Part shown: piece by piece, positions 38,605-63,430 of the stretch
Layout: the number at the start of each line of letters is the position of its first letter
How positions within the stretch are numbered: the stretch's first letter is position 1
DNA from: Minisyncoccia bacterium
Lineage (GTDB): Bacteria > Patescibacteriota > Minisyncoccia > Phycocordibacterales > UBA918
Direction of reading: 5' to 3'
NCBI GenBank assembly: GCA_046598345.1
Contig: JBKJIT010000003.1
Span: 73,023 to 137,022 of the forward strand
DNA: 64,000 bases
Notes under the pieces: model-generated
Database searches by the model: none
What the model saw: only the letters and a program-made list of their open reading frames with translations
What the model was told of the DNA's origin: nothing
Translations under genes and position numbers: made by a program

Positions 38605-38643
38605 AAACCTAAAAATTCAGCGACTTACTTTGTCGCACTACGA

Positions 38644-38687
38644 AAAAAGACCCTCGCCGTATGTTAAATACGTCTCGGGTCTTTTTT
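38644..38687 (+). terminator. Strong intrinsic terminator immediately after rpsG
   Basis: aaaaagaccctcgccgtatgttaaatacgtctcgggtcttttttc. Confidence 0.7.
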
Positions 38688-38735
38688 CTTGTGCTTCGCG
38701 TAATCCATCTGAATTTCTAGGTTTCTCAATCCAAG

Positions 38736-38764
38736 TTGACCAACTATATAATTAATTGTATAGT
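38736..38764 (+). promoter_or_regulatory. Promoter TTGACC-17-TATAGT for the sigma-r4/alpha-CTD fusion gene
   Basis: The same TTGACCAACT -35 context recurs at 40556. Confidence 0.5.
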
Positions 38765-38839
38765 CCTAAAGTAATTTGATCTTTGTAATCGGCATGTCGC
38801 CAGACCGCTCCTCAGGGAACACTGGGGTTGGAGAGAATA

Positions 38840-39484
38840 GTGAATAAAATATTTGAGGAGTTAGGTCTGTCGACAGAGGAACAAGATGAACTCGGAGAAG
38901 AGTGCCTTTCGCAACTCATGTTCAGGCTTTTAAGTCTCCTTTCTGAGCAGCAGTCGAGAGTCTTGAATGCGTATTTTGGCATGAATAGTCAACATCCTCA
39001 AACCTTGAGGGAGATTGCGAAAGCAATGAATCTTTCAAAGTCACGAGTTGGACAAATCAAACAAAAGGCCATCCGGATACTTCGTCATCCTTCGAGATTT
39101 AAGTTGGCATTGGAGGAAGTAAAGGATTCAAGGTGGAGTAATGAACCTAATCTACTCGTGCGTGAGCTTCGAAGGAGTTTGCTAGAGCTTGAGGCTAAGT
39201 TGGTCGATTCTAATAATCGCTTACAAAAAGCGGAACAAAGAATTGACAGGCTTGAGAGACATCTAAAGCGGCCGGATGTACATCCCTTGTCAGATCAGCC
39301 GTTTGAAGACTTATTCACCGTTCGAACGGCGACTTGCCTGAAGTGTGACGACATCTTGACGATCGGGGATATTTTGAAGCGAAATGAAAGTCAATTGCTC
39401 AGCGTTCCGAATTTAGGGCGTATGGCAGGTGCCGAAATCAAAGCGGTCCTCGCAGAGCGGGGACTTTCTCTCAAAGCAACTTAA
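38840..39484 (+). CDS. Chimeric protein: RpoD-like sigma-70 region 4.2 HTH + coiled-coil linker + RNA polymerase alpha-subunit C-terminal-domain (alphaCTD) homolog
   Basis: N-terminal LSEQQSRVLNAYFGMNSQHPQTLREIAKAMNLSKSRVGQIKQKAIRILRHPSR versus RpoD ...ERIRQIEAKALRKLRHPSR. C-terminal FEDLFTVRTATCLKCDDILTIGDILKRNESQLLSVPNLGRMAGAEIKAVLAERGLSL versus RpoA ...[55 protein letters not shown]. The GTG start at 38840 lies 4 nt after GGAGAG. The longer TTG start at 38828 is possible. Confidence 0.8.
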   Translation: MNKIFEELGLSTEEQDELGEECLSQLMFRLLSLLSEQQSRVLNAYFGMNSQHPQTLREIAKAMNLSKSRVGQIKQKAIRILRHPSRFKLALEEVKDSRWSNEPNLLVRELRRSLLELEAKLVDSNNRLQKAEQRIDRLERHLKRPDVHPLSDQPFEDLFTVRTATCLKCDDILTIGDILKRNESQLLSVPNLGRMAGAEIKAVLAERGLSLKAT

Positions 39485-39510
39485 TAAGTCTCTGAACTCT
39501 TCAGTACTCG

Positions 39511-39550
39511 AACCCGTCGTAAGTGTATGCTTGCGACGGGTTTTCTTTTT
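39511..39550 (+). terminator. Intrinsic terminator after the fusion gene
   Basis: aacccgtcgtaagtgtatgcttgcgacgggttttcttttt. Confidence 0.7.
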
Positions 39551-39577
39551 AATAATGTACCGTGATAGGGTATGTAG

Positions 39578-40222
39578 ATGCAATTTATTCTCCATAACTA
39601 TAGGCGATGTCCGTTTTGTATTCGTACCCGAATTCTTCTCTATCTGAAAAGAATCGAATATGACATTGTCGAGGAGCCGCTTCGGGAGTGGACTCCGTGG
39701 ATGAAAGAGTGGGCGTTTAGAACGGGCGAACGTACGCGTGTGCCCGTGCTTCGTTATGTGCTTGAAGAAGGAGTAGAGAAAGTGATGCCTGAATCAAATG
39801 AGATGAATCTTTTCATTGATAATTCAGATGGTGATCCAAAGTTTACACCGGGAATAGATAGTCCAGGTTATTCTGAAATGCTTGAGTGGTGGAATTGGTG
39901 CGACAAAAAACTGAAACCAATGATTGATCTCTATAAATATGGAGTGAATTTACAATTTGATCCTTTAATTCATCCGCTTCATACTGAAGAATTGCAAAAA
40001 CTCATACAAGTACTTGAAAATCACCTGCAGTCCAGAAAGTTTTTAATTGAAGAGCGACTTACTCTTGCTGATATTGCAATCATTCCGTTTATTCGCCAGA
40101 TCATGCGCACACGCGAAGGTGAGTTTGATTTTACCCCGTACCCTAAAGTGCTTGCATGGGCAAATCAGATTCTTCAAACTGACTGGTTTCAAAACGAAAT
40201 AATGAAAAAGCAACCAAAATAA
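39578..40222 (+). CDS. Glutathione S-transferase / glutaredoxin-2-like thioredoxin-fold protein
   Basis: N-terminal CPFC active-site motif with a downstream VPVL (cis-Pro), then a helical GST_C-like domain. Confidence 0.65.
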   Translation: MQFILHNYRRCPFCIRTRILLYLKRIEYDIVEEPLREWTPWMKEWAFRTGERTRVPVLRYVLEEGVEKVMPESNEMNLFIDNSDGDPKFTPGIDSPGYSEMLEWWNWCDKKLKPMIDLYKYGVNLQFDPLIHPLHTEELQKLIQVLENHLQSRKFLIEERLTLADIAIIPFIRQIMRTREGEFDFTPYPKVLAWANQILQTDWFQNEIMKKQPK

Positions 40223-40223
40223 C

Positions 40224-40544
40224 ATGGGAAAGAAAACGGGTAGAGCGGGAGGAAAATTCGGGGGTGGGCACACTACGGTGATTCCTGCGGCTGGCATTAT
40301 TGCTGATATTGCTCATCAGTGTGCTTCGGTCACAAAGATTTCTCCAGGGTTTATTAAGGGTGGTCTTTCTTCAGTGAAGGGTATTAAACGACTCAAAATA
40401 ACTGATGATGGAGGAAGTATTCTCCTTTCTGTGCGCGACAATATCTCGCATCAAGAATTACGTATCTATACGACTGACATACAAGCGACTCGCAGTTGCA
40501 TCGCAGAGGGTGCCCTCAAGGCCGGGTTTAAGATTTCCAACTAA
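40224..40544 (+). CDS. Hypothetical protein (Gly-rich N-terminus)
   Basis: A 106-aa ORF that starts 1 nt after the GST stop. No recognised motif. Confidence 0.35.
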   Translation: MGKKTGRAGGKFGGGHTTVIPAAGIIADIAHQCASVTKISPGFIKGGLSSVKGIKRLKITDDGGSILLSVRDNISHQELRIYTTDIQATRSCIAEGALKAGFKISN

Positions 40545-40555
40545 GTTTGACCAAC

Positions 40556-40583
40556 TTCTTAAAGGTTGTACAGTACAGGTTGG
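40556..40583 (+). promoter_or_regulatory. Promoter TTGACC-16-TACAGT
   Basis: TTGACCAACT -35 context as at 38736. It precedes the 40638 ORF, which has an AAGGGGATGAG ribosome-binding site. Confidence 0.45.
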
Positions 40584-40637
40584 TGTCTCGAGATTGGATG
40601 TTCGAGATGAGTACAACATGCGAAAGAAGGGGATGAG

Positions 40638-40952
40638 ATGGCTATAAAAGTTGTAGCAGAAAAAGCTGTTGCAGTTTTGGAATTTAAGCCAAACCAGTTT
40701 CAAACGAGGCTCGATCGACTTGCCACTCGTTTTTCTGGAGTTCTGGCAGACCTGCGTGTGCGAATGGTTCAGCAGGTCGGTGAGTGGACCTGGGAGCTCT
40801 TCGGACAGAAGACTAAGCGGGTGGTGGCTCGGATCAGCGTGGCACCAAACCAAGTTGTCGCATATGTGCGAAGGGGACGTTTCCGTCTTCGGAAAGCACT
40901 TCAAGCACTAATTGCCGAGTTTTTTCAGGTGGCAGAATTTAAGCCACTCTAA
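40638..40952 (+). CDS. Hypothetical protein
   Basis: A 104-aa ORF with a good ribosome-binding site, followed by a bidirectional terminator at 40970-40996. Confidence 0.4.
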   Translation: MAIKVVAEKAVAVLEFKPNQFQTRLDRLATRFSGVLADLRVRMVQQVGEWTWELFGQKTKRVVARISVAPNQVVAYVRRGRFRLRKALQALIAEFFQVAEFKPL

Positions 40953-40993
40953 ATCTCAACCTATAGAGGAAAGCCAGCGGCAACGCTGGCTTT

Positions 40994-42001
40994 TTACATG
41001 CTTTTAGGAGTTGGCCGTCTTCCAAGTTTGCGAGCGAATTTGTATACCAGTGCCAGTATGAGAATAAGGAGGCCAAGTTCAAGAAGCGCAGGATGCGCGA
41101 GGATATGTGAGAGGAGCCAAAGAATTACAGTGTATGCGGTGTAGAGGAGTGTCCGCCCTGCTTCTACGACTTGTGTAAAGAAGCTTTTCTCCGAATCCAT
41201 GGACGAGCGCGTGATGGTTGCAGTACCCGTACTCGTATTTCCCTCCGACGTAGATTGTTTGCCAAAGTATTCATCCATTTCATCTTGGCGCGTTTCGCGG
41301 TATGCATCGAGAGAAGTCTTTGACTTGATGATGCGGTCGGTAGCGCGTGAAAACACGGTATGTGTCTTACCTTCACGTAAGTACTGCTCAAGCCCATCTT
41401 CAGTTGCAAGAGTTACAGCAGCCGATTGCCCTGACTCATTACTCTCAGTATTTCTGTCAGTTGCTTTCTCTTCTACTTTTTCTTCAGGTATAGGATTTCC
41501 CACAAGTGGATTTGTACCTCGATTTTTTTCATCCTCGTCAGTGATGGTGTCATTGTCGTCATCGGTATCAGATTCATTTCCAGTGCCGTCTTTGTCAGTG
41601 TCGTAATCAATGCGGAGTGTGTCTTCTGCAATGGTACTTTCTATTTCTCCCGAATTTTCTTCCGCACCGACGACATGGAGCTTTACGTCAGTAAGCGTTG
41701 CGGTAATTTTGTGCTCACCAAAGGTTGGTGTCCAATCCACCCAACCTTCCACAATACGTCCGGGAAGCGCACTCACAACCCTGGTGCCAATCGTCGCGTC
41801 GTTATCGGTAAATCGAATAGTGCCACTTATGTCATGGTCGGTGTTGTTTCGGAGTGCCACATACATACGTGTTGGAACTTCCGCAAAAACAGTTGGGCTC
41901 GAGTACCAGAGTCCCTGCACGAGTCCCGCATTAAGTTCGTTCCCGAGGACAATTCCGGGGAAGAGGAGTATAAACGCACAGATATATAGAATCCGCTGCA
42001 T
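40994..42001 (-). CDS. Surface protein: signal peptide, acidic Ca-binding (thrombospondin-type-3-like D-x-D-x-D-G) repeats, C-terminal TM anchor
   Basis: MQRILYICAFILLFPGIVLG signal peptide. DTDKDGTGNESDTDDDNDTITDEDEKN repeats. C-terminal hydrophobic helices plus a KFARKLGRR stop-transfer. Confidence 0.55.
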   Translation of the reverse strand: MQRILYICAFILLFPGIVLGNELNAGLVQGLWYSSPTVFAEVPTRMYVALRNNTDHDISGTIRFTDNDATIGTRVVSALPGRIVEGWVDWTPTFGEHKITATLTDVKLHVVGAEENSGEIESTIAEDTLRIDYDTDKDGTGNESDTDDDNDTITDEDEKNRGTNPLVGNPIPEEKVEEKATDRNTESNESGQSAAVTLATEDGLEQYLREGKTHTVFSRATDRIIKSKTSLDAYRETRQDEMDEYFGKQSTSEGNTSTGTATITRSSMDSEKSFFTQVVEAGRTLLYTAYTVILWLLSHILAHPALLELGLLILILALVYKFARKLGRRPTPKSM

Positions 42002-42068
42002 ACCCTATAGTATACGTCAGCCTAAAGCTTTTGTTTTTGTCCGAAACTTCCTATACTAGTGCATCACT

Positions 42069-43301
42069 ATGAAATTTCTTCCGTACTGTGAGGAGTGTGG
42101 CGAACTGCGAGTCCCACATCGATTTCTTCGGCTCTCAGATCACCTAGTGACGAATGTGTTTGAAGGCGGTCCTTGGGGACGGGAATTCAAAGCACTTCAT
42201 GGATTTGTAGACACACGCGTGACAAACTTCTTCACTCCAAAGCGAGTCAAAGCACTCGCTCTTTTTACGAGGCGTCTAGGGATCGGTTCCTATTCATTCG
42301 CACCTACAAAAACAGACGACACACGCACACTCGCATTATACGAAGGTGCAGAAAAAACTGGAGTAACACTTCTCACATTCAAGCTTTTTGGCACCACGCT
42401 CTGCTTCGTTGCAGAAAAGGTCTTTCCAGATGGAAAGAAGGAAGAATTAGTTTTCAATCTCATTCCACGACCCAAGAACTTCGAATCGCCATCGCTCGAA
42501 TGGATGGGGGATAAGGCACTTCTTAAGGAAAGGCTCATGCATGCTGGACTGCCGTGTGCAGAAGGCGGAGTAGCAAGTACTGAAGCAGAGGCACTCATGC
42601 TTTTTAGGAAGATTGGTCGGCCAGTAATTACGAAGCCTCATATCGGTAGCCGCGGCCGTCATACGACGCTTGATGTCCGGACTGAAGAAGAGTTGATGCG
42701 AGCGTACCGTATTGCGACTCAAATTACGGATGGAGTTGTGGTTGAGGCCTACCTTAAAGGTACAGTCCACCGAGTGACGCTCGTTGGCGGAAAGCCGGCA
42801 GCTGTGGCGAGGCGTGAATACCCGCATGTGATCGGAGATGGGATGCATTCAGTTGGTGAACTTATCGCAGAGGAGAATGCAAAACCACATCGAAATGGTA
42901 CACATTTCAGACACATTGATACCGAGCACCGCATTCATGCTTCCCTTAAGAAACAAAACCTCACACTCGCCTCAATTCCTGAAGTGGGGGAAATGGTGAT
43001 CCTTAATGATAAAAATAGCCGTCTCCATGGAACCCTTACTGAAGATGTAACTGATACGGTGCACGAAGAAAATCTTGCACTTTTCACGAAGCTCGGAGAC
43101 CTTCTTGGGGATCCTATCGTTGGGGTTGATTTTATGATTACGGACATGAGTCGTTCCTGGAAAGAGCAACCGGACGCCGGGTTTATCGAATGCAACTCAA
43201 TGCCGTTTATTGATGTACACCATCAGGTCGTAAGTGGCCGGCCTATCAACGTGGCGGCACTCCTCTGGAATGAGGTATTTAAAACTCCTGAGTCTATTTG
43301 A
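42069..43301 (+). CDS. ATP-grasp ligase, cyanophycin-synthetase N-terminal-domain-like
   Basis: RPVITKPHIGSRGRHTT...VVVEAYLKGTVHRVTLVGGKPAAVARREYPHVIGDGMHSVGELI...IVGVDFMITDMS. This resembles the CphA ATP-grasp module. There is no Mur-ligase domain. Confidence 0.6.
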   Translation: MKFLPYCEECGELRVPHRFLRLSDHLVTNVFEGGPWGREFKALHGFVDTRVTNFFTPKRVKALALFTRRLGIGSYSFAPTKTDDTRTLALYEGAEKTGVTLLTFKLFGTTLCFVAEKVFPDGKKEELVFNLIPRPKNFESPSLEWMGDKALLKERLMHAGLPCAEGGVASTEAEALMLFRKIGRPVITKPHIGSRGRHTTLDVRTEEELMRAYRIATQITDGVVVEAYLKGTVHRVTLVGGKPAAVARREYPHVIGDGMHSVGELIAEENAKPHRNGTHFRHIDTEHRIHASLKKQNLTLASIPEVGEMVILNDKNSRLHGTLTEDVTDTVHEENLALFTKLGDLLGDPIVGVDFMITDMSRSWKEQPDAGFIECNSMPFIDVHHQVVSGRPINVAALLWNEVFKTPESI

Positions 43302-43360
43302 CGAAGGTAATGAGAAGAGTACACTACGAACAAAGCTCTTCATCAAAATAGGAAACTACC

Positions 43361-44164
43361 ATGGAAAAGTCCAAGTATATTTCAAAGGTTAACGGTCACG
43401 CTCTCGTTCTTGGCGGCTCTGGTGGAATCGGAGCAGAAATTTCGCTCGCATTTGCTGCAAATGGAGTAAAAGCTATTTCATTCACCTATAACCGTAACAA
43501 AAAAGCAGCGGACGCTCTCGCTAAAGAGCTCAAAAAAAATGGGGTGAAAAAGGTCTATTACGACGCTCTAAATCAATCAGACGATGTTGCTGTCGCCCAG
43601 TTCCTCGAGGCTGCGGTTGTGGCAAACGGTTCAGAGATCGAAATTGCCGTAAATGCAGTGGGTGTTTCACCGAATAAGCCACTTGAGAAACAGCGACTCG
43701 AAACCACGGGAGAGGGAACGGACAACATCGGCTGGCGCGAGGTGTTTGAGACTAATGTGTTTGGTTGTTTTGTCTCTACGCGGGCAATCGCCGAGCGCAT
43801 GAAGGCCAAAAAAATTAAGGGGGCAATAACTCTGATCACGTCAACGAACGGTATCAATAGCCATTCCCAAATTTCTGTGCATTACGATGCTTCGAAGGCC
43901 GCACAGTCACACATGATGCGCGTGCTTGCTGAGCACTATGGAAGAAAGTATGAGATTCGTATCAATGGGATTGCTCCAGGGTGGATTGATACTGACATGA
44001 ATAAGTCGCTACCAGTTTCCGAACGCAAAAAGGAAATGAAAAAAATCTGGAGTGGCCGTTTCGCTTTTCCCCATGAGGTCGCAGCCTTTGTGGTATTTAT
44101 CTCCGGAACTGGAGGGAGTTACACATACGGTCAAGACATTATGGTTGATGGAGGATATCGATAG
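43361..44164 (+). CDS. SDR family NAD(P)-dependent oxidoreductase
   Basis: GGSGGIGAEIS (TGxxxGxG) and YDASKAA (YxxxK). Confidence 0.8.
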   Translation: MEKSKYISKVNGHALVLGGSGGIGAEISLAFAANGVKAISFTYNRNKKAADALAKELKKNGVKKVYYDALNQSDDVAVAQFLEAAVVANGSEIEIAVNAVGVSPNKPLEKQRLETTGEGTDNIGWREVFETNVFGCFVSTRAIAERMKAKKIKGAITLITSTNGINSHSQISVHYDASKAAQSHMMRVLAEHYGRKYEIRINGIAPGWIDTDMNKSLPVSERKKEMKKIWSGRFAFPHEVAAFVVFISGTGGSYTYGQDIMVDGGYR

Positions 44165-44200
44165 GCATTAAGAGCGCATAACAGCGCTCTTTCTTTTATA

Positions 44201-44229
44201 TTGCCGAACCTATTTAAATACCGTATAGT
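44201..44229 (+). promoter_or_regulatory. Promoter TTGCCG-17-TATAGT for fusA, followed by a ~190-nt structured leader
   Basis: The leader contains a family 1 repeat copy at 44281-44340. Confidence 0.5.
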
Positions 44230-44280
44230 ATGCGCACTTAGGTGAGAGGTGACCAAATGTCACCTCGCAAGACCTTGTTA

Positions 44281-44340
44281 GATATTTCTTGAGTTTACGA
44301 AAGAAAATATCATCAAGGTGTACTGAACCTGTAAGGTTTG
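44281..44340 (+). repeat. Repeat family 1, copy c2 in the fusA leader: GATATTTC...GAAAATATC stem + CATCAAGGTGTACTGA-ACC-TGTAA-GGT
   Basis: See the family 1 alignment. Confidence 0.65.
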
Positions 44341-44421
44341 GGCCTTTTTATTTTCTTTTGAAGATCGCGGAGGCGCTCCTAAAAAGAGAGGTATTAATTC
44401 ATAATTTAGAACAAAAACATC

Positions 44422-46590
<2,169 letters not shown>

Positions 46591-46591
46591 A

Positions 46592-46625
46592 AGAAAAGAG
46601 CACCGCAAGGTGCTCTTTTCTTTTA
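46592..46625 (+). terminator. Intrinsic terminator after fusA
   Basis: aaaagagcaccgcaaggtgctcttttctttt. Confidence 0.7.
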
Positions 46626-46726
46626 TTACCTCTCATCTGTTACTCCGCGGGCCGAAGGCGAGGGGTGAGGAATGGGATGGGACCCATTCCTCAAGAGGTT
46701 GTCGACAAAATAATCCCACGTCAGCG

Positions 46727-46790
46727 GTTTTATTTTGTCATACAACCTGAACAGCGTCTGTAAGACGGGAAGGATGTTCAGGACGAAGCA
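46727..46790 (+). repeat. Repeat family 1, copy c4: TTATTTTGTCATACAACCTGAACAG-CGTC-TGTAA-GACG, nested in a CCTGAACA/TGTTCAGG stem
   Basis: See the family 1 alignment. Confidence 0.6.
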
Positions 46791-46821
46791 TAAAAAACAC
46801 CCATCGAAGGTGCTTTTTTGT

Positions 46822-47613: not shown

Positions 47614-47710
47614 AGGCTCAGTATATAGACAATTTGCAGTGAATCCAATTATTCGCTTTCGTAATTATTTATTTGTATACTCTCTACAGATTAGTTAAGG
47701 AGAGACAATC

Positions 47711-48857: not shown

Positions 48858-48956
48858 AAAATCAAAAAAGACCGCGCAGCATTAGCGCGGCTTTTGTTTT
48901 CATAAAAAAAGCGACCCGGATGGGTCGCTGTGCTAGGGAAACATGCTTGCGGGTTA

Positions 48957-54070: not shown

Positions 54071-54117
54071 TTTTGCACGGTCATACGAAAAGCCATTTAT
54101 AAGTTAGTTTCGACACA

Positions 54118-54738: not shown

Positions 54739-54740
54739 GT

Positions 54741-55466: not shown

Positions 55467-55467
55467 C

Positions 55468-55839
55468 ATGGGATTATTTGGAAAAAAAGAGGCGAAAGCT
55501 CCCGTGGAAACGGAAGTGATAGCGCAAAAGAAGCAAACACCACAAAGGGCAACAGCACACTACACTGAAGGTGCAATTGTCCGCCCAAGGGTGACTGAAA
55601 AGTCTGCGCTCCTCATTGATAAGAACGTATACACGTTCGAGATCAAGAAAGGTGCCACAAAGTACGAAGTGCGCGATGCGGTGAAGTCACTTTTCAAGGT
55701 GACTCCAGTGAGTGTGCACATTGTGAATAGACCCGCACGAAAAAGTTTGTCTGCAACACGCGGTCGTCGTGTTACTCAGTCGGGATTACGAAAAGCGTAC
55801 GTCTACCTCAAAGAGGGAGACCGTATTGATTTGGTTTAG
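55468..55839 (+). CDS. rplW: 50S ribosomal protein L23
   Basis: VRPRVTEKSALLIDKNVYTFEIKKGATKYEVRDAVKSLFKV. Confidence 0.88.
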   Translation: MGLFGKKEAKAPVETEVIAQKKQTPQRATAHYTEGAIVRPRVTEKSALLIDKNVYTFEIKKGATKYEVRDAVKSLFKVTPVSVHIVNRPARKSLSATRGRRVTQSGLRKAYVYLKEGDRIDLV

Positions 55840-56006
55840 ATTATTATCAGTAAAGTAATTGAAGAGTGACAGTGAAAGAGAATATTTGGAATTTCTAATT
55901 CCTTACAGGAACTGTCCACTTATTGGATTTTTAAATAAAAAATCTCAATAAGTCTTGCGAAGTTCCAAGTATTCACTTCTCACGCTACGCTCATAAGAAA
56001 TTTGGC

Positions 56007-56855
56007 ATGAAAAAATTTAAACCAACATCAGCAGGGCGACGTGGCATGACAGTAATCTCGTATCGAGATGTACTCACAACTACAAAGAATGCCCCGCTCA
56101 AATCGCTCACGAAAGGGCGACGAAGTACGGGAGGAAGGAACAGTCAGGGTCGCACCACAAACCTCTATCAAGGAGGTGGAAATAAGCGAACCTATCGCGA
56201 CGTCGATTTCACGATGAACAAGAAGAATGTAGTCGCACGCGTTGAATCCATTGAGTACGATCCGTTTCGCACGGGATTCATTGCACTCGTCTGCTATGCA
56301 GATGGTGAGCGACGCTACGTTCTTGCACCAGACGGCATGGTAAAAGGGGATGAGTTTATTGTCTCAGAAGCGGCAAAGCCGAAGATGGGAAACAGACTTA
56401 CACTCGGAAACATTCCAGTTGGTACATTTGTCTCAAACATTGAGCTGAAGCCAGGAGCAGGTGGGCGCCTTGCACGTTCTGCAGGAAGCTATGCGGAAGT
56501 AGTTGCGCATGACGCAGGCTACACCCAGATCAAGATGCCATCGAGTGAAATTCGAAAGATTATTTCAACGGCATGGGCAACGATCGGTAAGGTATCAAAC
56601 GATGAGCACCAGCTCGTTACGCTTGGTAAAGCGGGACGCGCACGTTATCTAGGTCTCCGACCAAAGACACGTGGAAGCGCTAAAAACGCTGTTGATCACC
56701 CACACGGAGGAGGTGAAGGACGCGCACCGCGTGGACACAGACGAGCTCGAACGAAACAAGGTCGGCCAACAGGAAAAGGACAGAAGACACGAAGTCCAAA
56801 GAAATACTCGAACGTATTCATCGTTTCTCGCCGCAAGGTTGGAAAGCGAGGATAG
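56007..56855 (+). CDS. rplB: 50S ribosomal protein L2
   Basis: Canonical uL2 (GRNSQGRTT...HPHGGGEG). Confidence 0.94.
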   Translation: MKKFKPTSAGRRGMTVISYRDVLTTTKNAPLKSLTKGRRSTGGRNSQGRTTNLYQGGGNKRTYRDVDFTMNKKNVVARVESIEYDPFRTGFIALVCYADGERRYVLAPDGMVKGDEFIVSEAAKPKMGNRLTLGNIPVGTFVSNIELKPGAGGRLARSAGSYAEVVAHDAGYTQIKMPSSEIRKIISTAWATIGKVSNDEHQLVTLGKAGRARYLGLRPKTRGSAKNAVDHPHGGGEGRAPRGHRRARTKQGRPTGKGQKTRSPKKYSNVFIVSRRKVGKRG

Positions 56856-56873
56856 TCGGAGTGAAGGGACAGA

Positions 56874-56902
56874 AAAAAGCCCGCGCATGCGCGGGCTTTT
56901 TT
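56874..56902 (+). terminator. Intrinsic terminator after rplB
   Basis: aaaaaagcccgcgcatgcgcgggctttttt. Confidence 0.7.
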
Positions 56903-56911
56903 GTGCAGCAG

Positions 56912-57253
56912 CTAGAAAGAATGAAGCATTCGGCACCACATGTGTTCAGCGAACACAAACTTCTGGGGCTTTCTCATTTCACCCCCACGGTAGATGGAGA
57001 GAGTCATACGAGCAAGTCCACAATGTTCAGATCGCACCCAGAGATACGAATCGTGATCCAACATGTACCCATTGAGAGGAGACATTTGAACCTGTCGAAA
57101 TGTTACGTTCGACATGTAGAAACGCCACCTGTCTCGTGGCTCAAGATTTTCGGGTGATACTGAAGGTGCGTAAGAAACCATAAAACCGCATGGCATTTCC
57201 ACTACCCTCAGCACAAAATTTTGCTCGTCGAGCAATTGTCGGATGTTACTCAA
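56912..57253 (-). CDS. Hypothetical protein (TTG start)
   Basis: A 113-aa ORF with a GAGGAGG ribosome-binding site 5 nt upstream of TTG. It lies in a GC-richer segment. Confidence 0.3.
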   Translation of the reverse strand: MSNIRQLLDEQNFVLRVVEMPCGFMVSYAPSVSPENLEPRDRWRFYMSNVTFRQVQMSPLNGYMLDHDSYLWVRSEHCGLARMTLSIYRGGEMRKPQKFVFAEHMWCRMLHSF

Positions 57254-57371
57254 CGCGCCTCCTCATGTACGTGAACGATCAAACCAAAATATAACGACGA
57301 ATGGCGGATATGTCTAGGGTAGTTACGCACTAAAAAACCCGCGGTGTAGCCGCGGGTTTTGGAAAACTCAA

Positions 57372-57692
57372 TCATCGCCTCATCATGATCGTCGACCAGA
57401 TGTCGCAAGGAAATGTGTAGGCTGACGTGGCATCGCCCTTACTGAAAACATACAGAACGATGAAGTCGTTTTCCGTCACCCAGCTCCATTCGACAAGGGA
57501 AGAAGGATCAATAGCAGTGCCTGTTTCCATGTTTTCCTTCATGGCGCGGAATATCTCGAAAGGAATTCTCATGGAGACGTCGTATTCTCCCGAGATGATA
57601 ATTTGAATGTGCGCCCCCTCTGGTTGTACAAACACTCGGCACCTCGGAGTCTCTTGCCCTTGAATCTGATTTGTCGTCATGACTACCTCCAT
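57372..57692 (-). CDS. Hypothetical protein
   Basis: A 106-aa ORF, followed by a terminator at 57332-57361. Confidence 0.4.
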   Translation of the reverse strand: MEVVMTTNQIQGQETPRCRVFVQPEGAHIQIIISGEYDVSMRIPFEIFRAMKENMETGTAIDPSSLVEWSWVTENDFIVLYVFSKGDATSAYTFPCDIWSTIMMRR

Positions 57693-57819
57693 ACACTGAT
57701 CAACACAGAATATAGCGATTTATGTATGAGTTGTCGAGTAAATCGTATGCCATTGAAGTATTTGAATTATTCCAGTATCCTGCCTCTAGTAGCACCTTTA
57801 GTTTCTACGGGGGGACAAT

Positions 57820-58263
57820 ATGCAAAAGGTAATCGCAGTACGAAATGGCCGGAGCGATATTCAACATCTTACTGGAGACGGTATAGAAGAAATGCGAGCT
57901 CTCGCGGTGAAATTGAAAAATTTGATCCCACCGGGCTCGCCTACGCTTATTGTCACATCCCCACTTTCTCGAGCGCTCGAGTCGGCGAGAATCTTGGGTG
58001 AAGTGCTTCGCCAGGATGTTGTGACTTGCGATGTTCTCCAATTCGCAGCCTACCGGTTTGGAAACCAACTGAAGGTCGCGATTGAGGCTCAGGCCAGGCT
58101 CTACGACATTGTAATTGTGGTAACTCATGGCGAGTCGCCTTCAGGGATTCTGAACGCTTTCAAGCGAGAGCGTGGGGGATCAGCAGTGCTGAGGCAAACG
58201 ATTCCAGAAGGCACGGCACTCATAATGTCTCTGGACACTGGAATTTTTAACCCGATTCCGTAA
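57820..58263 (+). CDS. Histidine phosphatase superfamily protein (SixA/PGAM-like)
   Basis: VRNGRS (RHG-motif variant), LIVTSPLSRALESA and VVTHG. Terminator at 58289-58325. Confidence 0.65.
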   Translation: MQKVIAVRNGRSDIQHLTGDGIEEMRALAVKLKNLIPPGSPTLIVTSPLSRALESARILGEVLRQDVVTCDVLQFAAYRFGNQLKVAIEAQARLYDIVIVVTHGESPSGILNAFKRERGGSAVLRQTIPEGTALIMSLDTGIFNPIP

Positions 58264-58333
58264 CGAAGAACGAGTAGACGCTTGTGTACTCAAAGGCTGA
58301 CCCCCAGGTCAGCCTTTCCTTTTTCCCAATCTG

Positions 58334-58362
58334 TTGACAGATTCTCACGCTTCGCGTACTAT
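58334..58362 (+). promoter_or_regulatory. Promoter TTGACA-17-TACTAT driving rpsS and downstream r-protein genes
   Basis: Consensus -35 with a near-consensus -10. A ~150-nt leader precedes rpsS. Confidence 0.55.
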
Positions 58363-58516
58363 AGCCCCGTTCCACAGACTCCTGCGGTTGCAGGTAATTC
58401 AAGGACATCTACCTCTGAATTAGTGCAACACGCACCTGGTGGGATTCTCTTCTAGCGCTGGCCGTTACCTGCTGCTAGACGAGGTTCTCACCTCGCGCTT
58501 ACTAGCGATTTTCTCT

Positions 58517-58855
58517 ATGTCACGATCACTTTACAAAGGACCCTATATTCATCCTAAGCTTCTTAAGAAAGTGGAAGGAAAAAAGCCTGCGGACACAGGT
58601 GTTATTAAGACGTGGTCCCGTGCTTCAGTTATTTCCCCAGAAATGGTTGGTTTTACTTTTGGTGTACATAACGGCAAGACCCACGTATCTGTGTTTGTGA
58701 GCGAAGAAATGGTAGGACATCGTCTCGGTGAATTCTCTCCAACAAAGAAATTCATTCGTCACGGAGGTAAGATGCAGAAAGAGCTAGAGGTCAAAAAGAA
58801 AGAATCAGAAATTGCTGCAGCTAAGGCAGCAAAGGTTGCTAGCCCTGCGAAATAA
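58517..58855 (+). CDS. rpsS: 30S ribosomal protein S19
   Basis: [19 protein letters not shown]...[13 protein letters not shown], plus a Lys/Ala-rich C-terminal tail. Confidence 0.9.
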
Positions 58856-58871
58856 CTTTTGAATTCCTATC

Positions 58872-59195
58872 ATGAAAGCAATGCTTAAAAACTATCGTCA
58901 GTCACCTCGCAAGGTTCGCCTTATTGCTGATCTCGTGCGTGGCAAGAAGGTAGCGAAGGCACTTGAGACACTCAAGTTCGTAAATAAGCGTGCATCAGAG
59001 CCGTTTTCTAAACTTATCGAATCTGCAGTTGCAAATGCAAAGACCGCAGGTGTTTCTATCGATACACTCATCATCAAGTCAGTTACCGTAAACAAGGGCA
59101 CCGTGATCAAACGATTTATGCCACGAGCACGTGGTACGGCAGCCCGAATCAACAAGCGAAATAGCCATATTCACGTCGAACTCGCGCAGAAATAA
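58872..59195 (+). CDS. rplV: 50S ribosomal protein L22
   Basis: uL22 sequence. Confidence 0.92.
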   Translation: MKAMLKNYRQSPRKVRLIADLVRGKKVAKALETLKFVNKRASEPFSKLIESAVANAKTAGVSIDTLIIKSVTVNKGTVIKRFMPRARGTAARINKRNSHIHVELAQK

Positions 59196-59214
59196 TTTTA
59201 TTTTGTAATACATC

Positions 59215-59937
59215 ATGACACACGTCGTACATCCATATGCGCATCGCCTCGGCATCATCCGTGATTGGAAATCACGCTGGTTTGCGACGACTCCGAAACA
59301 GTATCGTGAGTACATGCGCACCGACATTGCCGTTCGAAAGTATCTTGCAACGAAGCTTCGTGGCATGCACATTGCTAACATTGAAATTGAGCGCAACGAG
59401 AAGATGTATCGTCTCATAATCAGTACATCGAGACCTGGTCTCATCATCGGACGTGGAGGGGACGGTGCGACAAAGCTCAAGAAGGAAGTTGATCTCATCC
59501 TCCGTACGCTGAAGCTCACAGAGAAGCCAGAAGTCAAAATTGATATTGAAGAAGTACGTTCGCCTGAATCAAGTGCAGCTATTATCGGCCAAATGGTCGT
59601 TGAAGGACTTGAGAAGCGTATGCCATTCCGTCGCGTCATGAAGCAAACGGCTGAAAAAGTGATGGCGAATCGAGATGTGAAGGGTATTCGAATCATTGCC
59701 TCCGGACGTCTTGGAGGTGCTGAAATGGCACGTCGTGAGGAGACTAAGCGAGGACGAATCCCGCTGCAGACACTTCGCGCAGACATTGACTTTGCACGTG
59801 AGAAAGCAATCCTCCCGTATGGCTCTATCGGTGTAAAGGTATGGATTTACCGAGGGGATATCTTTGCTGATCGTAAGGTGAATTCTGAAGAGAGTACTGT
59901 TCGTGCAGAGCGTCGTAATCGTGATCGAGCGCAGTAA
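59215..59937 (+). CDS. rpsC: 30S ribosomal protein S3
   Basis: uS3 with a KH domain. Confidence 0.94.
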   Translation: MTHVVHPYAHRLGIIRDWKSRWFATTPKQYREYMRTDIAVRKYLATKLRGMHIANIEIERNEKMYRLIISTSRPGLIIGRGGDGATKLKKEVDLILRTLKLTEKPEVKIDIEEVRSPESSAAIIGQMVVEGLEKRMPFRRVMKQTAEKVMANRDVKGIRIIASGRLGGAEMARREETKRGRIPLQTLRADIDFAREKAILPYGSIGVKVWIYRGDIFADRKVNSEESTVRAERRNRDRAQ

Positions 59938-59951
59938 TTCTGAATTTTCAT

Positions 59952-60386
59952 ATGTTATTTCCTAAGAAAGTAAAACACCGAAAGTGGCAGACAGACAGAC
60001 GACATCCTGATCGTCTTAATGCGCCAGAAACTCGTGGCATCACGGTGTCCTTTGGTGCGTTCGGTCTCAAGGCAACCACACAGTCTCGAGTGAAGAGCAA
60101 TCAGATTGAAGCAGCGCGTCGCGTGATCTCTCGAACACTTGGAAAGACAGGAAAGGTATGGATTCGTATTTTCCCCGATAAGCCAGTCACGAAGAAACCT
60201 GCAGAAGTAGGTATGGGTAAAGGAAAGGGAGATCCAGATCACTTCATCTTCGATGTTCGCCCTGGCCGTGTTCTCTTTGAGATCGATGGAGTAACTGAAG
60301 CGGTTGCACGTGAGGCACTAAGGAAGGCAACGGCGAAACTTCCGCTTAAGGCAAAAGTCGTAACGCGTGAGCAAACTGGAGAATAA
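59952..60386 (+). CDS. rplP: 50S ribosomal protein L16
   Basis: uL16 sequence. Confidence 0.94.
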   Translation: MLFPKKVKHRKWQTDRRHPDRLNAPETRGITVSFGAFGLKATTQSRVKSNQIEAARRVISRTLGKTGKVWIRIFPDKPVTKKPAEVGMGKGKGDPDHFIFDVRPGRVLFEIDGVTEAVAREALRKATAKLPLKAKVVTREQTGE

Positions 60387-60391
60387 AGTAT

Positions 60392-60607
60392 ATGAATATG
60401 GAAGAACTTAAAAAAATGAATGATGCAGACTTGCAGAAGGAGCTCGCCGAAAAGCGAGACGCCCTTCGAAAGCTCACATTTGGTACTGCAGGAAGCGCAA
60501 TGCGCGACGCTCATGCAAAGCGAAACACAAGAAATGCAATCGCGCGCATACTTACCGAGCAGAACCGCCGCGCGGGAGATGTGAAGAAGGAAACCAATAA
60601 CGCATAG
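60392..60607 (+). CDS. rpmC: 50S ribosomal protein L29
   Basis: uL29 sequence. Confidence 0.88.
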   Translation: MNMEELKKMNDADLQKELAEKRDALRKLTFGTAGSAMRDAHAKRNTRNAIARILTEQNRRAGDVKKETNNA

Positions 60608-60614
60608 TTTCAAT

Positions 60615-60884
60615 ATGGCAACAGAAAACCTTACAACAAAGACAGAAGAAACCATCGCAAAGCGACGTGTGCTTCAGGGTGTCGTAGTGTCTACAAAGAT
60701 GCAAGACACGATTACCGTCGCTGTCGAGCGGTATGTGATGCATCCAAAGTACAAGAAGTACCAGCGCCGAACGAAGAAGTTCCTCGTGCACGACGCAGGG
60801 AACACAGCGAAGGAGGGAGAGCGCGTCAGTATTCGTGAGACGCGCCCGATGTCTCGCCGTAAGCATTTTGAGCTCATAAAATAA
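60615..60884 (+). CDS. rpsQ: 30S ribosomal protein S17
   Basis: uS17 sequence. Confidence 0.9.
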   Translation: MATENLTTKTEETIAKRRVLQGVVVSTKMQDTITVAVERYVMHPKYKKYQRRTKKFLVHDAGNTAKEGERVSIRETRPMSRRKHFELIK

Positions 60885-60888
60885 GTAT

Positions 60889-61260
60889 ATGATTCAACCA
60901 CGATCAATTGTGAATATCACAGATAACTCCGGCGGAAAGCTCGGACGTGTTTTCAAGGTACTTGGAGGCTCAAAGAAGCGTTACGCTGAACTTGGCGAAA
61001 TGGTTGTCCTCTCAATTCAGACTGCAGAGCCACGAAAGTCAGTAAAGAAGAAAGACATAGTGTACGGGGTTGTTGTGCGTCAGAAGAAGGCGTACCGACG
61101 AAAGGATGGCTCATACGTGAGCTTTGACGACAACGCGGTTGTGCTTGTCGATAAGGAAAAGAAGGAACCAAAGGCAAACCGTGTGTTTGGACCGATTCCT
61201 CGCGAGCTGGGAGAAACGGGCTTTCAGAAGATTGTTTCTCTCGCACCAGAAGTGGTGTAA
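60889..61260 (+). CDS. rplN: 50S ribosomal protein L14
   Basis: uL14 sequence. Confidence 0.94.
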   Translation: MIQPRSIVNITDNSGGKLGRVFKVLGGSKKRYAELGEMVVLSIQTAEPRKSVKKKDIVYGVVVRQKKAYRRKDGSYVSFDDNAVVLVDKEKKEPKANRVFGPIPRELGETGFQKIVSLAPEVV

Positions 61261-61278
61261 CCCAATAACTATTTGCAT

Positions 61279-61596
61279 ATGAAGATTAAAAAGAAAGACA
61301 CAGTTATCATCACAGCTGGAAAGGACAAAGGAAAGTCCGGCACGGTGATTCGTGCGTTCCCAAAAAAGGACATGGTGCTCATTGAAGGAGTGAATGTGCA
61401 AACACATCACGAAAAATCAAAGCGCCGTGGCCAGCAGGGGCAGATTGTAGTGCGCCCTACTCCAATTCACGTATCGAATGTGGCACTGAAGCACGGAAAG
61501 GAAGGGAAGGGCGTGCGCATTGGATACGTAATGGAGAAAGACGGTGCGAAGATGAAAAAGGTGCGCGTCGCGCGACCGAGTGGAGACAAAGTATAA
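61279..61596 (+). CDS. rplX: 50S ribosomal protein L24
   Basis: MKIKKKDTVIITAGKDKGK, uL24. Confidence 0.9.
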   Translation: MKIKKKDTVIITAGKDKGKSGTVIRAFPKKDMVLIEGVNVQTHHEKSKRRGQQGQIVVRPTPIHVSNVALKHGKEGKGVRIGYVMEKDGAKMKKVRVARPSGDKV

Positions 61597-61622
61597 TTTT
61601 AGTAAGTATTTAAAGAGAACGT

Positions 61623-62183
61623 ATGGCAAAGACATTTACCACAATGAAGGAAAAAATGGAATCGGTGTATCCTTCACTCCGAGAGTCTTTTGCGTACAAG
61701 AACAAGATGCAGGCACCACGCATCATGAAAATGATCGTTTCAACGGGTGTTGGAAAAATTTCAGATAAGCATAAGCGAGAACTCATTCAGAATCGGCTTG
61801 CACAGATTACAGGGCAGAAGACGGTTGAGCGACGTGCAAAGAAATCTATTGCGACATTCAAGCTCCGAGAAGGTGATGTGGTTGGGTATCAAGTAACGCT
61901 CCGTGGTCCACGCATGCGCACATTCCTTGATAAGCTCATTCACCTGGCACTTCCACAGACGCGTGACTTTCGAGGTCTCCCGATTTCAGCTATTGATGAG
62001 ATGGGTAACTACACTCTCGGTATTAAAGAGCACACGATCTTCCCTGAGACGGCTGACGAGGAAATCAAGAATGTATTTGGATTCGGGATCACAATTGTGA
62101 CAACTGCGAAGACTAAGAAGGAAGCAGAGGCGCTCCTCACGCACATTGGACTTCCACTTCGAGACAAGTCGACCAAGAAGTAA
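61623..62183 (+). CDS. rplE: 50S ribosomal protein L5
   Basis: uL5 sequence. Confidence 0.94.
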   Translation: MAKTFTTMKEKMESVYPSLRESFAYKNKMQAPRIMKMIVSTGVGKISDKHKRELIQNRLAQITGQKTVERRAKKSIATFKLREGDVVGYQVTLRGPRMRTFLDKLIHLALPQTRDFRGLPISAIDEMGNYTLGIKEHTIFPETADEEIKNVFGFGITIVTTAKTKKEAEALLTHIGLPLRDKSTKK

Positions 62184-62330
62184 TGAGAAAAGAAAAAACT
62201 CGATCGAAAAGCTCGAGTTTTTTAGACCTAACAGTGTATTGACATTATTTGTTTTAGTTGTATGATCACTCTCAGTAGCACCTCCCGCAGCCACATGGCT
62301 ACGGGAAATGTAGTTCTAAGGAGATGAATC

Positions 62331-63116
62331 ATGCAAGTGCACATTGATGTACCGGAGTCACTTCAAACGGCGTGGCCAGAAAGTTTGGGGCCCCAGGATA
62401 CGGCCATCGCACGGGCCAAGCAGCGTGTCCGTGAGCATTTTGTGAAAGACCAGCCACAAAAGGTCGTTGTTTCACTTGTTGGGAAATACGATGCATGCAC
62501 AAGTGATCCTTGTGCGGTGTGGCCTATCCCGACAAGTGGCGAGGAAAACGAACCTACGTACTCAGTCTCTCTCGAGGGCAAGCTTGGCCTCCAGTGCACG
62601 ATCGTCGTCGATGAACTTACGTCAGTTCGGACGAAGAACATGATCACGAATCAACACGTTCCTCGAAGTCCCATGTCTCCGGTACTCCGCCAACAACGCC
62701 AGCCGGCACAGCCACCACAGCATAACGGGGTTCAGCCTACCCAAATTGGCCAGAATTACAGCCCTAACGGTTCGACGGTGGCACATGTGAACGGCAAAGC
62801 GTTCGATTTCGATGGGGTGCCGCTCCTTTGTACGGAAGTAAGTACCGCCATGAAATCTCGTGGCGGCGACGCGTACCAGAAGGCTGAGGTTCTACGGAAA
62901 CGAGTGGAGGAAGCGCATCAAGACGTTGACAAGAAAATCCAGGCGGCTCTCGACGCCGAAGTCGAACTGACGAAGCTTGAAGCCGAGTTGCGGGTAGCGG
63001 AAGACCATGTCCGCTCCCATATTCCTCCCAGAATAATTACAGAGTTGATGCGAAGGCACCTTGAACGAATCAAACCGCCGACACCAGAAATGCCGGCGGA
63101 AGCTACCCTTCAATAA
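62331..63116 (+). CDS. Hypothetical protein encoded in a GC-richer insert (Gln/Pro-rich middle, coiled-coil C-terminus)
   Basis: A 261-aa ORF, followed by a terminator at 63141-63172. No recognised domain. Confidence 0.4.
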   Translation: MQVHIDVPESLQTAWPESLGPQDTAIARAKQRVREHFVKDQPQKVVVSLVGKYDACTSDPCAVWPIPTSGEENEPTYSVSLEGKLGLQCTIVVDELTSVRTKNMITNQHVPRSPMSPVLRQQRQPAQPPQHNGVQPTQIGQNYSPNGSTVAHVNGKAFDFDGVPLLCTEVSTAMKSRGGDAYQKAEVLRKRVEEAHQDVDKKIQAALDAEVELTKLEAELRVAEDHVRSHIPPRIITELMRRHLERIKPPTPEMPAEATLQ

Positions 63117-63173
63117 GGGCTTGCGCTCGTATATCCACTTGAATCCCGGACAAACACGTCCGGGATTTTTTTA

Positions 63174-63202
63174 TTGACTCAAGTAGGTGTTTCTGGTATA
63201 TT
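63174..63202 (+). promoter_or_regulatory. Promoter TTGACT-17-TATATT with a ~225-nt leader before rpsZ
   Basis: Near-consensus elements. Confidence 0.55.
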
Positions 63203-63430
63203 CACCCCGTAGCGATATTCGCCTACTCTCGGTTTTGCGGGGTACAGGATGGCTCAAGTGAGCCAAAAGTACTTACGCAAATGAGGACGCGCCGATCATC
63301 TGGCTTTGCTAGAGACGGAAAGCGAGTCTTACGTAGTGCGTGAGGAGAGTGTAGTCACTGATTCGCAGTGAAACAGCTCACCGGTTACATATTTATTCAT
63401 GTTTGGGGAACCAAACTAACCATTTGATTA

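Follow-up and report, generated by a model that had tools for sequence, protein, structure and literature searches.

The str-S10-spc cluster of a patescibacterium is divided into six collinear units whose spacers probably act as sites of gene turnover

The str-S10-spc cluster of ribosomal-protein (r-protein) genes is a textbook case of conserved gene order, and it is the basis of the "16 syntenic ribosomal proteins" used for binning and placing genomes of the candidate phyla radiation (CPR). In archaeal clusters, and in those of cyanobacteria and plastids, the S10 gene is attached to that of EF-Tu (str) and detached from the L3-L4-L23-L2 genes. In pangenomes, a few intervals between core genes, known as hotspots, concentrate gain and loss, and their content differs between close relatives. 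The break-up of operon clusters in Gammaproteobacteria and Bacilli has been described by the invasion-separation model (Brandis 2021, Genome Biol Evol, PMC8046335), at whose invasion stage few unrelated, mostly native genes lie between translation-gene units while collinearity is kept. Here we analyze the cluster in a 64,000-nucleotide stretch of a Minisyncoccia bacterium (contig JBKJIT010000003.1 of assembly GCA_046598345.1; the whole stretch is called the window), where it is interrupted by non-ribosomal genes at five junctions.

We will argue that the cluster was probably inherited in a segmented form, and that its spacers, each reaching from a terminator to the next promoter, act as permissive sites of gene turnover. 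The results do not support the idea that an intact superoperon was invaded, be it recently or by targeting. By protein similarity, the window is Candidatus Kaiserbacteria-like, of the class Paceibacteria (Patescibacteria/CPR). Searches with RplC in GTDB genomes and JGI metagenomes led to Patescibacteria of that class, labeled Kaiserbacteria, Nomurabacteria or Paceibacteria, with 70-71% identity at best, and EF-G finds closer ones (85-92% identity), some of them Candidatus Kaiserbacteria.

Six units with predicted terminators and leaders

The gene order rpsL-rpsG, fusA, tuf-rpsJ, rplC-D-W-B, rpsS…rplE and rpsZ-rpsH is intact (Pfam; tblastn synteny), as an earlier note on this DNA had claimed, and the canonical gene set from rpsL to rpsH is present (Pfam; tblastn against 160+ loci). 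This order is cut at five junctions, denoted J1 (rpsG/fusA), J2 (fusA/tuf), J3 (rpsJ/rplC), J4 (rplB/rpsS) and J5 (rplE/rpsZ). Contiguity inside the str, S10 and spc operons, with gaps of tens of bases, is thus not what we find; there are five gaps of ~1.25 to 5.8 kb, with 18 non-ribosomal genes in total. J1 spans 38605-44421 (7 genes), J2 46591-49812 (4 genes), J3 51413-54117 (3 genes), J4 56856-58516 (3 genes, including two on the minus strand) and J5 62184-63430 (1 gene), in agreement with the earlier counts of 7, 4, 3, 2-3 and 1.

All six units lie on the plus strand. The first consists of rpsL (37626-38045) and rpsG (38131-38604), identified by Pfam Ribosom_S12_S23 and Ribosomal_S7 and 81-84% identical to relatives, and the second of fusA (44422-46590; Pfam), with 85-92% identity to many Kaiserbacteria-like EF-G proteins. 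In the third, tuf (49813-51009) and rpsJ (51047-51412, with a corrected start at 51047) were found by Pfam and have 89-94% and 88-93% identity to relatives, respectively. The fourth comprises rplC, rplD, rplW and rplB (54118-56855); Pfam identifies rplC and rplB, while rplD and rplW were called by tblastn synteny to relatives' genes with Pfam Ribosomal_L4 and Ribosomal_L23. The fifth, with rpsS, rplV, rpsC, rplP, rpmC, rpsQ, rplN, rplX and rplE (58517-62183), rests on tblastn synteny and on Pfam of the relatives' orthologs, and the sixth, rpsZ (63431-63616) and rpsH (from 63610, truncated at the window end at 64000), on translation and homology.

The earlier note had placed a strong terminator after each upstream r-protein gene (at 38644, 46592, 51560, 56874 and 62190-63172), and folding bears this out. 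The predicted terminators are located after rpsG (38646-38690, plus strand, −22.5 kcal/mol, followed by a U-run), fusA (46592-46622, bidirectional, −25.0 kcal/mol), rpsJ (51562-51592, strong and bidirectional, −36.8 kcal/mol), rplB (56873-56901, bidirectional, −24.2 kcal/mol) and rplE (62195-62224, plus strand, −12.0 kcal/mol). Another hairpin after rpsJ (~51452-51498, plus strand, −11.6 kcal/mol) is related to the rpsG terminator. The hairpins at 38646-38690 and 46592-46622 were missed by a pattern scan. Nearly all the inserted genes, called cargo below, also end in a predicted terminator (by folding, most of them also in the pattern scan); examples follow a 104-amino-acid (aa) open reading frame (ORF) in J1 (40968-40995, bidirectional) and the J5 gene (63141-63168, plus strand, −18.7 kcal/mol), and two plus-strand terminators lie just before the fusA promoter (44170-44191) and the rpsS promoter (58292-58317).

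Upstream of each unit after the first, a sigma-70-type promoter and a leader can be predicted, all on the plus strand. For fusA, the promoter TTGCCG-17-TATAGT (44201-44229, from the scan) precedes a leader with a small hairpin and a U-run (44230-44421), and 8 genomes have kept both the promoter and this hairpin; the leader has an extra hairpin insert of ~100 nucleotides that is common only to locus L161 (relatives' loci carry L numbers). An alignment of 7 genomes gives the tuf promoter TTGCAA-17-TACTAT (49586-49614) and a leader of ~200 nucleotides (49615-49812) with long invariant stretches. The rplC promoter (53920-53947, −10 box TATACT at 53942-53947) is conserved in relatives, and the boxes of the rpsS promoter TTGACA-17-TACTAT (58334-58362) are nearly invariant, its leader being conserved in 6 genomes. 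For rpsZ, the promoter TTGACT-17-TATATT with a TG extension (63174-63202) and the conserved leader (63203-63430) come from the scan and from an alignment with L081, L165, L166 and L167.

The upstream regions of rpsS, rplC, rpsZ, fusA and tuf were aligned with those of family-level relatives, namely L001, L081/L168, L161/L167, L162/L166, L163/L165 (CP064968.1, a closed genome of 1,054,716 bp), L164 and L169. The −35 and −10 boxes of the five units are invariant or nearly so and the leaders are long and conserved, while the DNA 5' of each −35 box is unrelated among the genomes. In CP064968.1, J4 (359 bp) and J5 (305 bp) are free of genes and still retain promoter and leader. The promoters that the earlier note had named at 44201, 58334 and 63174 are thus recovered by the scan with the same boxes conserved in relatives, but its view that the downstream blocks had acquired promoters and leaders does not hold. 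Since these signals are conserved in family-level relatives, the segmentation appears to be ancestral.

Two of the leaders have a more elaborate predicted structure. The rpsS leader (58363-58516) contains a hairpin at 58436-58495, with 13 pairs that show compensatory changes and z=−4.1 relative to shuffles. A covariance model built on it matches only directly 5' of rpsS, in the window, L001, L003, L081, L163/165, L166 and L167. The start of rpsS is accordingly corrected to the ATG at 58517 instead of the GTG at 58439, since 58439-58516 is conserved, noncoding leader RNA.

In the rplC leader, the motif GACCAATGGGC at 53999 is followed by a long hairpin with a U-run (54008-54075), which makes it a candidate attenuator. 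The hairpin has folding energies from −36 to −52 kcal/mol and z=−8.4 relative to shuffles; its apex GAGCTTGTGCTC is conserved, the stems differ in sequence, and a U-run comes after it. The leaders were folded singly, since stem lengths vary and MAFFT/RNAalifold missed the long stem. A conserved 5' motif, GGGCACAA, could alternatively pair with the apical UUGUGCUC, which suggests a possible antiterminator. Besides the window, 11 distinct relatives have this leader (among them L001-L004, L081, L082, L086 and L165-L167), and these are exactly the subclade with the rpsJ/rplC break. Because the unit encodes L4, feedback of the L4 type would be a reasonable inference by analogy. An 81-aa ORF at 53810-54055 was considered as a J3 gene and rejected, since this stretch is the conserved leader of rplC.

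For r-protein autoregulation, one expects a 5' leader that is conserved and structured and has a terminator-like hairpin ahead of the regulated unit, and the rplC and rpsS leaders are of this kind. The leaders of units 2-6 are probably autoregulatory. Neither at the gathering threshold nor at E<=5 did Rfam give a family in the region; its matches were terminator-like noise, for example Leu_leader, and no homology to a described leader family was seen.

Distribution of the breaks among relatives

To place the breaks phylogenetically, 18 intergenic distances were measured in 160 loci, and the rates of gaps of at least 400 bp were obtained for those loci whose RplC is at least 50% identical to that of the window. 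Such gaps occur at rpsG/fusA in 11 of 21 loci, at fusA/tuf in 22 of 25, at rpsJ/rplC in 9 of 41, at rplB/rpsS in 28 of 36 and at rplE/rpsZ in 10 of 23. Pooled, this is 80/146 for the five junctions and 3/452 for the other 13 (Fisher p ~2e-54, for loci that are not phylogenetically independent). Loci of Bacteroidota, Streptococcus and other non-CPR bacteria do not have these gaps, with the exception of a 2 kb rpsJ/rplC insert in Hymenobacter.

In a neighbor-joining tree of RplC+RplD+RplB, the rplB/rpsS gap is found throughout the Paceibacteria-like clade with few compact exceptions, and beyond this clade it is nearly missing, L041 being one small exception. The rpsJ/rplC gap is concentrated in the subclade of the window. 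The order of the units is retained in every relative examined, and no dispersed units were seen. The proposal of the earlier note, a targeted or strongly selected integration, can be kept in its second option, and the junctions are recurrent, non-random sites of gene gain and loss; for the first option, no machinery was found.

One could suspect an assembly or binning artefact that joined r-protein fragments with unrelated DNA, as the source is probably metagenome-assembled and exact RpsC and GST copies are present on a 341.7 kb contig. However, the same segmented layout, with shared cargo and leaders, is present in at least six independent assemblies, including the closed genome CP064968.1, and this explanation is therefore left with next to no probability.

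Cargo of the spacers and its possible origins

We now consider the genes within the spacers. The contexts of the closer relatives were reached via homologs of EF-G, RpsC and GST, followed by tblastn. A first-pass BLAST clustering of the ORFs in the relatives' gaps had given mostly singletons, but the total non-homology of cargo that this implied was overturned by the closer relatives. Orthologs at the same junction exist there for 8-9 of the 18 cargo genes (5/7 in J1, 2/4 in J2, 1-2/3 in J3, 0/3 in J4 and 0/1 in J5, counted as shared with at least one relative). The same five junctions are open in relatives, with orthologs for about half of the cargo genes, and the rest of the cargo is unique to the window among the relatives sampled. 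According to the earlier note, an interspersed arrangement with orthologous inserts in relatives would point to an ancient architecture, and this is in part what we see.

Most of J1 has the same gene order as in the closest relative, L168, where the identities are 69% for GST, 64% for DUF2103, 45% for a 335-aa protein, 58% for an ATP-grasp ligase and 61% for an SDR. The GST gene (39578-40222, plus strand, Pfam) has 69-77% and the DUF2103 gene (40224-40544, plus strand, Pfam) 46-73% identity to genes at rpsG/fusA in L168, L169, L162 and L163. The 335-aa protein, secreted or in the membrane (40994-42001, minus strand), is 44-47% identical to proteins at the same place and on the same strand in L161, L162, L163, L168 and L169. 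The ATP-grasp ligase is of the cyanophycin-synthetase N-terminal type (42069-43301, plus strand; NCBIfam, Pfam), and both it and the SDR (43361-44164, plus strand, Pfam) are collinear in L168. The J1 core is common also to L169, L162, L163 and L161, and the relatives add GH15, glutamate dehydrogenase, GFA and others.

Two J1 genes are unique to the window among the relatives sampled. One is a 104-aa ORF (40638-40952, plus strand), for which no homologs were found. The other encodes a 218-aa fusion of sigma-70 region 4 and the C-terminal domain (CTD) of the RNA polymerase alpha subunit (38828-39484, plus strand; Pfam, NCBIfam), with no tblastn match in close relatives. Its sigma-70 region 4 comprises residues 35-87 and its alpha CTD residues 160-210, with a coiled-coil-like linker, which is an unusual combination of two promoter/activator-contact domains.

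In J2, an inositol monophosphatase (IMPase) family gene (46822-47613, minus strand, Pfam) is 50-60% identical to genes at fusA/tuf in L162 and L163. The ortholog in L163 (CP064968.1, 13945-14504) is split into two frames and is an apparent pseudogene, which illustrates the decay of a resident spacer gene. A 175-aa ORF (48957-49484, minus strand) has weak orthologs, with 25-28% identity, directly after fusA in L081, L162 and L163. Between these genes, two ORFs of 171 and 193 aa (47711-48857, plus strand) have no homologs and are unique.

The stability of the J1 and J2 core raises the question of functional co-location, that is, whether cargo gains from or contributes to the expression or regulation of the r-protein units, for example by read-through or by translation-related roles; candidates for the latter would be DUF2103, the sigma region 4/alpha-CTD protein and the phosphatases. 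In its favor, GST, DUF2103, the 335-aa gene, IMPase and the 175-aa gene keep their positions across relatives with ~90% identical EF-G, and one J1 gene encodes domains that interact with RNA polymerase. However, the cargo genes have their own predicted terminators and several have promoter-like sites, and 5 of the 18 lie on the strand opposite to the r-protein units. In addition, the cargo of J3-J5 is unrelated between close relatives, the wider set extends from toxin-antitoxin pairs to pyrimidine biosynthesis, and J4 and J5 are empty in CP064968.1. Co-location for function is therefore distinctly improbable as an explanation.

Less of the content of J3-J5 is shared with relatives. J3 contains ORFs of 133 aa (51697-52098) and 175 aa (52209-52736), both on the plus strand, which resemble ORFs of L081 and L167 weakly by repeat motifs and nothing else, and a pirin gene (52815-53666, plus strand, Pfam) that is 60% identical to one at rpsJ/rplC in L081 only. 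In other close relatives, J3 holds MazE/PemK (MazEF), a U32 peptidase with a ferredoxin, DAHP synthase, or two small ORFs. The J4 genes, ORFs of 113 aa (56912-57253) and 106 aa (57372-57692) on the minus strand, each with a promoter-like site in the scan, and a 147-aa histidine-phosphatase-like gene (57820-58263, plus strand), are not shared with relatives. The J5 gene (62331-63116, plus strand, GC content 0.54), with a promoter TTGACA-16-TATGAT predicted by the scan at 62239-62266 (plus strand), encodes a 261-aa ORFan that has only a self-match among 1.84 billion representative proteins. For ten ORFs without assignment, PHROGs gave nothing convincing (one marginal match, E=0.0076), and NCBIfam gave nothing for seven of these ten. 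An all-against-all BLAST of the window cargo proteins revealed no paralogy. In the wider clade, 145 junction ORFs match 64 Pfam families of no more than 4 members apiece, including pyrimidine biosynthesis, response regulators, peptidoglycan-binding giant proteins, PemK/MazE, three reverse transcriptases (RVT_1) and two IS200-like transposases (Y1_Tnp).

With such content, a recent horizontal acquisition, in which foreign islands entered an intact superoperon in this genome, has to be considered. Three of the 18 cargo genes are outliers in GC content, namely 48957-49484 (0.57, z=+4.3), 62331-63116 (0.54, z=+3.2) and GST (z=−2.6), and 10 of the 18 have no counterpart in the sampled relatives. 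Of the four GC-rich inserts that had been noted by eye, the first two regions mentioned here stand, and those at 52.1-52.8 kb (0.48) and 57.0-57.4 kb (0.47) do not. However, two of the three outliers, GST and, weakly (25-28%), the J2 175-aa gene, have orthologs at the same junction, and the tetranucleotide and dinucleotide signatures of the whole J1-J5 regions fall inside the range of background windows of the same size, so that the junctions cannot be told from the rest of the window by composition. Also against it, the junctions, promoters and leaders are older than this genome, and for the J5 ORFan no close donor homolog exists among the representative proteins searched.

The search for mobility genes gave a similar picture. 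In the window cargo, no integrase, recombinase, transposase, reverse transcriptase or phage family was found by Pfam, NCBIfam and PHROGs. There are no att-like repeats at the junctions or flanking the inserts, as had been thought worth checking, the only bracketing repeats being terminator hairpins around single genes, and no tRNA gene lies anywhere in 37-64 kb. The window inserts thus have none of the features of a genomic island, be it an integrase, an att/tRNA site or an overall deviant composition. As the origin of the architecture, recent horizontal acquisition is largely refuted, and we regard it as very improbable. Elsewhere in the window, a perfect 37-nucleotide direct repeat (7343-7379 and 7423-7459) of part of tRNA-Pro(tgg), within 7304-7459, and a 47-nucleotide repeat with 89% identity (6936-6982 and 7278-7324) were observed; the tRNA-Pro repeats resemble the att-like partial copy of a tRNA gene that an integrative element leaves behind.

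The hairpins themselves merit closer attention. The inner hairpin CGTATGTTAAATACG of the rpsG terminator is also present in the hairpin after rpsJ, and a motif search in 2.37 Mb (window and loci) located the shared inner stem-loop CGTATGTT(G)AAATACG at 38658 and 51468 and nowhere else, so that no relative has it. Two 29-nucleotide terminators (52108-52136 and 52750-52778), identical at 28/29 positions, bracket the J3 175-aa gene; no further copy was found in the window or in any sampled locus, and the idea of a dispersed repeat was thus rejected. The terminators of the two J2 orphan genes (48230-48252 and 48876-48898) are 83% alike. L168 has an extra 193-aa gene, not present in the window, between two hairpins that are identical at 39/42 positions, and similar pairs are seen in L162 and L166. 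L162 also has tandem small minus-strand paralogs at 8811-9779 and 13801-14729, with 23-31% protein identity and short intergenic elements that are 88-97% identical; here the proteins diverge fast while the flanking signals are conserved.

These pairs are an argument for a targeted, hairpin-directed insertion, according to which promoter-ORF-terminator units moved in at terminator hairpins and the boundaries form a cassette platform. Candidates would be excised circles that integrate at a shared terminator in a Campbell-type event, group II introns that seek out terminators, or elements of the IS200/IS605 type, and the reverse transcriptase and transposase ORFs in relatives' junctions would fit with this. 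However, the window inserts lack a recombinase, reverse transcriptase or transposase, including any such ORF beside a terminator hairpin, and the terminators of most cargo genes are unrelated. The L162 repeats flank paralogs with identities of only 31% and 23%, so that at least part of the pairs is accounted for by genes that were duplicated along with their terminators. Moreover, half of the cargo is of old standing and keeps its order in relatives, and the composition is native. We therefore consider targeted insertion unlikely. The link to terminator hairpins or repeat elements that the earlier note had drawn survives in so far as hairpin duplication is seen, without targeted machinery.

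As to the route of acquisition, a set of genes resembling those for type IV pili or type II secretion was annotated by eye at 21553-27349, with prepilin-type N-termini (e.g. 24556-26037), and a ComEC gene (33024-34613), assigned by synteny with Pfam-annotated relatives, lies near it. Together they are consistent with a capacity for DNA uptake, which bears on how spacer genes may be acquired. A related idea is a cassette platform without an integrase, in which units would be excised and re-inserted at duplicated terminator hairpins with the help of natural competence, the lineage-specific leaders having rewired r-protein feedback after operon fission. This is quite unlikely in our view; if true, the most protected neighborhood of the genome would be a nursery for orphan and accessory genes.

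The segmented cluster and its counterparts

On the basis of these results, the reading that we prefer, and hold to be probable, is that of an ancestrally segmented cluster. It would have been inherited as six collinear, autonomous transcription units, rpsL-rpsG, fusA, tuf-rpsJ, rplC-D-W-B, rpsS...rplE and rpsZ-rpsH..., and the layout of the predicted signals suggests that these are transcribed separately. Each unit would end in an intrinsic terminator, and each after the first would have its own sigma-70-type promoter and structured leader. The spacer from a terminator to the next promoter would then be the sole place where DNA can be added or lost without a polar effect on essential genes, and for this reason the spacers could act as permissive sites of gene turnover.

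Selection through the lack of a polar effect is the most economical reason for the recurrence of the same junctions, and we infer that permissiveness, and not targeting, is behind it. Some spacer genes would be long-resident, namely GST, DUF2103, the 335-aa gene, ATP-grasp, SDR, IMPase and the 175-aa gene of J1 and J2 and the pirin of J3. Others, in J3 in part and in all of J4 and J5, would change fast; they are often orphans with their own predicted terminator, several with a promoter-like site. The turnover itself may proceed by ordinary routes, such as the rapid divergence of tandem duplicates, recombination at terminator hairpins that are repeated and, occasionally, mobile elements.

It should be stressed that several points weigh against this reading. 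The terminators and promoters are predictions throughout, and the scan for sigma-70-like promoters found 23 sites with 21.9 expected in shuffles, i.e. no enrichment; individual sites carry weight only because they are conserved in relatives. The rpsS-leader covariance model does not reach past family-level relatives, and class-wide homology of the rplB/rpsS break consequently rests on distribution and not on a shared element. Furthermore, the upstream non-ribosomal stretch (RNase H, ComEC, SOD, lactamase_B, L28, M50 protease) has kept nearly the same gene order in these relatives, and turnover in J3-J5 is much faster than at the boundaries in the SOD-lactamase_B-L28-M50-S12 part of it, a difference that pure neutrality does not obviously predict. 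Finally, the near-identical hairpins on either side of single cargo genes, both in the window and among relatives, hint at a more specific mechanism.

Heritable breaks across a CPR class would mean that the contiguity of the r-protein block cannot be assumed there, and the junctions may be where contig ends, chimeras and missing markers accumulate. The locus also offers a natural experiment in how r-protein stoichiometry is maintained without operon coupling. The promoter-leader pairs before rplC, rpsS, rpsZ, tuf and fusA may be ribosomal leaders of undescribed kinds and can be tested as such, and the fast-changing spacers, with the ORFan here and tandem arrays of diverging small proteins in relatives, are tractable sites for studying gene birth and loss in very small genomes. 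We found no account of this segmentation in CPR in the literature, of which our coverage was limited, so that this is not proof of novelty.

Compared with the canonical str-S10-spc cluster of E. coli and B. subtilis, the window has the same gene content and order from rpsL to rpsH, and likewise a leader, here a candidate control element, before the unit that encodes L4. It differs in being cut into six units, with breaks inside str (rpsG/fusA, fusA/tuf), S10 (rpsJ/rplC, rplB/rpsS) and spc (rplE/rpsN), each with a terminator, spacer genes, a promoter and a lineage-specific leader, whereas the canonical S10/spc boundary (rpsQ/rplN) is unbroken. The rplC leader can be likened, from its predicted structure, to the S10 leader of E. 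coli with its L4 attenuation, since a stable hairpin with a U-run lies 5' of the L4 (rplD) unit in both; there is no sequence or Rfam similarity, and the unit here begins with rplC instead of rpsJ.

The rpsJ/rplC break and the tuf-rpsJ unit are like the archaeal and cyanobacterial-plastid layout. Here, however, they occur in a bacterium of the CPR, the break goes with the rplC leader (GACCAATGGGC and the attenuator hairpin), and the rplB/rpsS and rplE/rpsZ breaks are additional. With pangenome hotspots the locus has in common that gene flux is located in few core intervals and that the content differs, but it is r-protein units that flank the intervals, there is no integrase, tRNA or prophage signature, and the inserts are mostly single genes with their own terminator. 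Similar to the cassette arrays of integrons, there are serial single-gene units with hairpin-forming repeat ends, two of them bracketed by near-identical hairpins, but IntI and attI are absent, and the units have promoter-like sites of their own and lie on both strands. As to attC-type imperfect inverted repeats, what lies at the 3' ends here are hairpins with a perfect GC stem and a U-run, which is typical of terminators, and two pairs of them are related.

By analogy, the locus fits with the invasion stage of operon-cluster break-up (PMC8046335). Few unrelated and mostly native genes lie between units whose order is kept, as in that model, but the sites are inside the classical operons and not between them, and no separation follows. 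The breaks are instead family-to-class deep in CPR, with lineage-specific leaders and a repeated turnover of the spacers.

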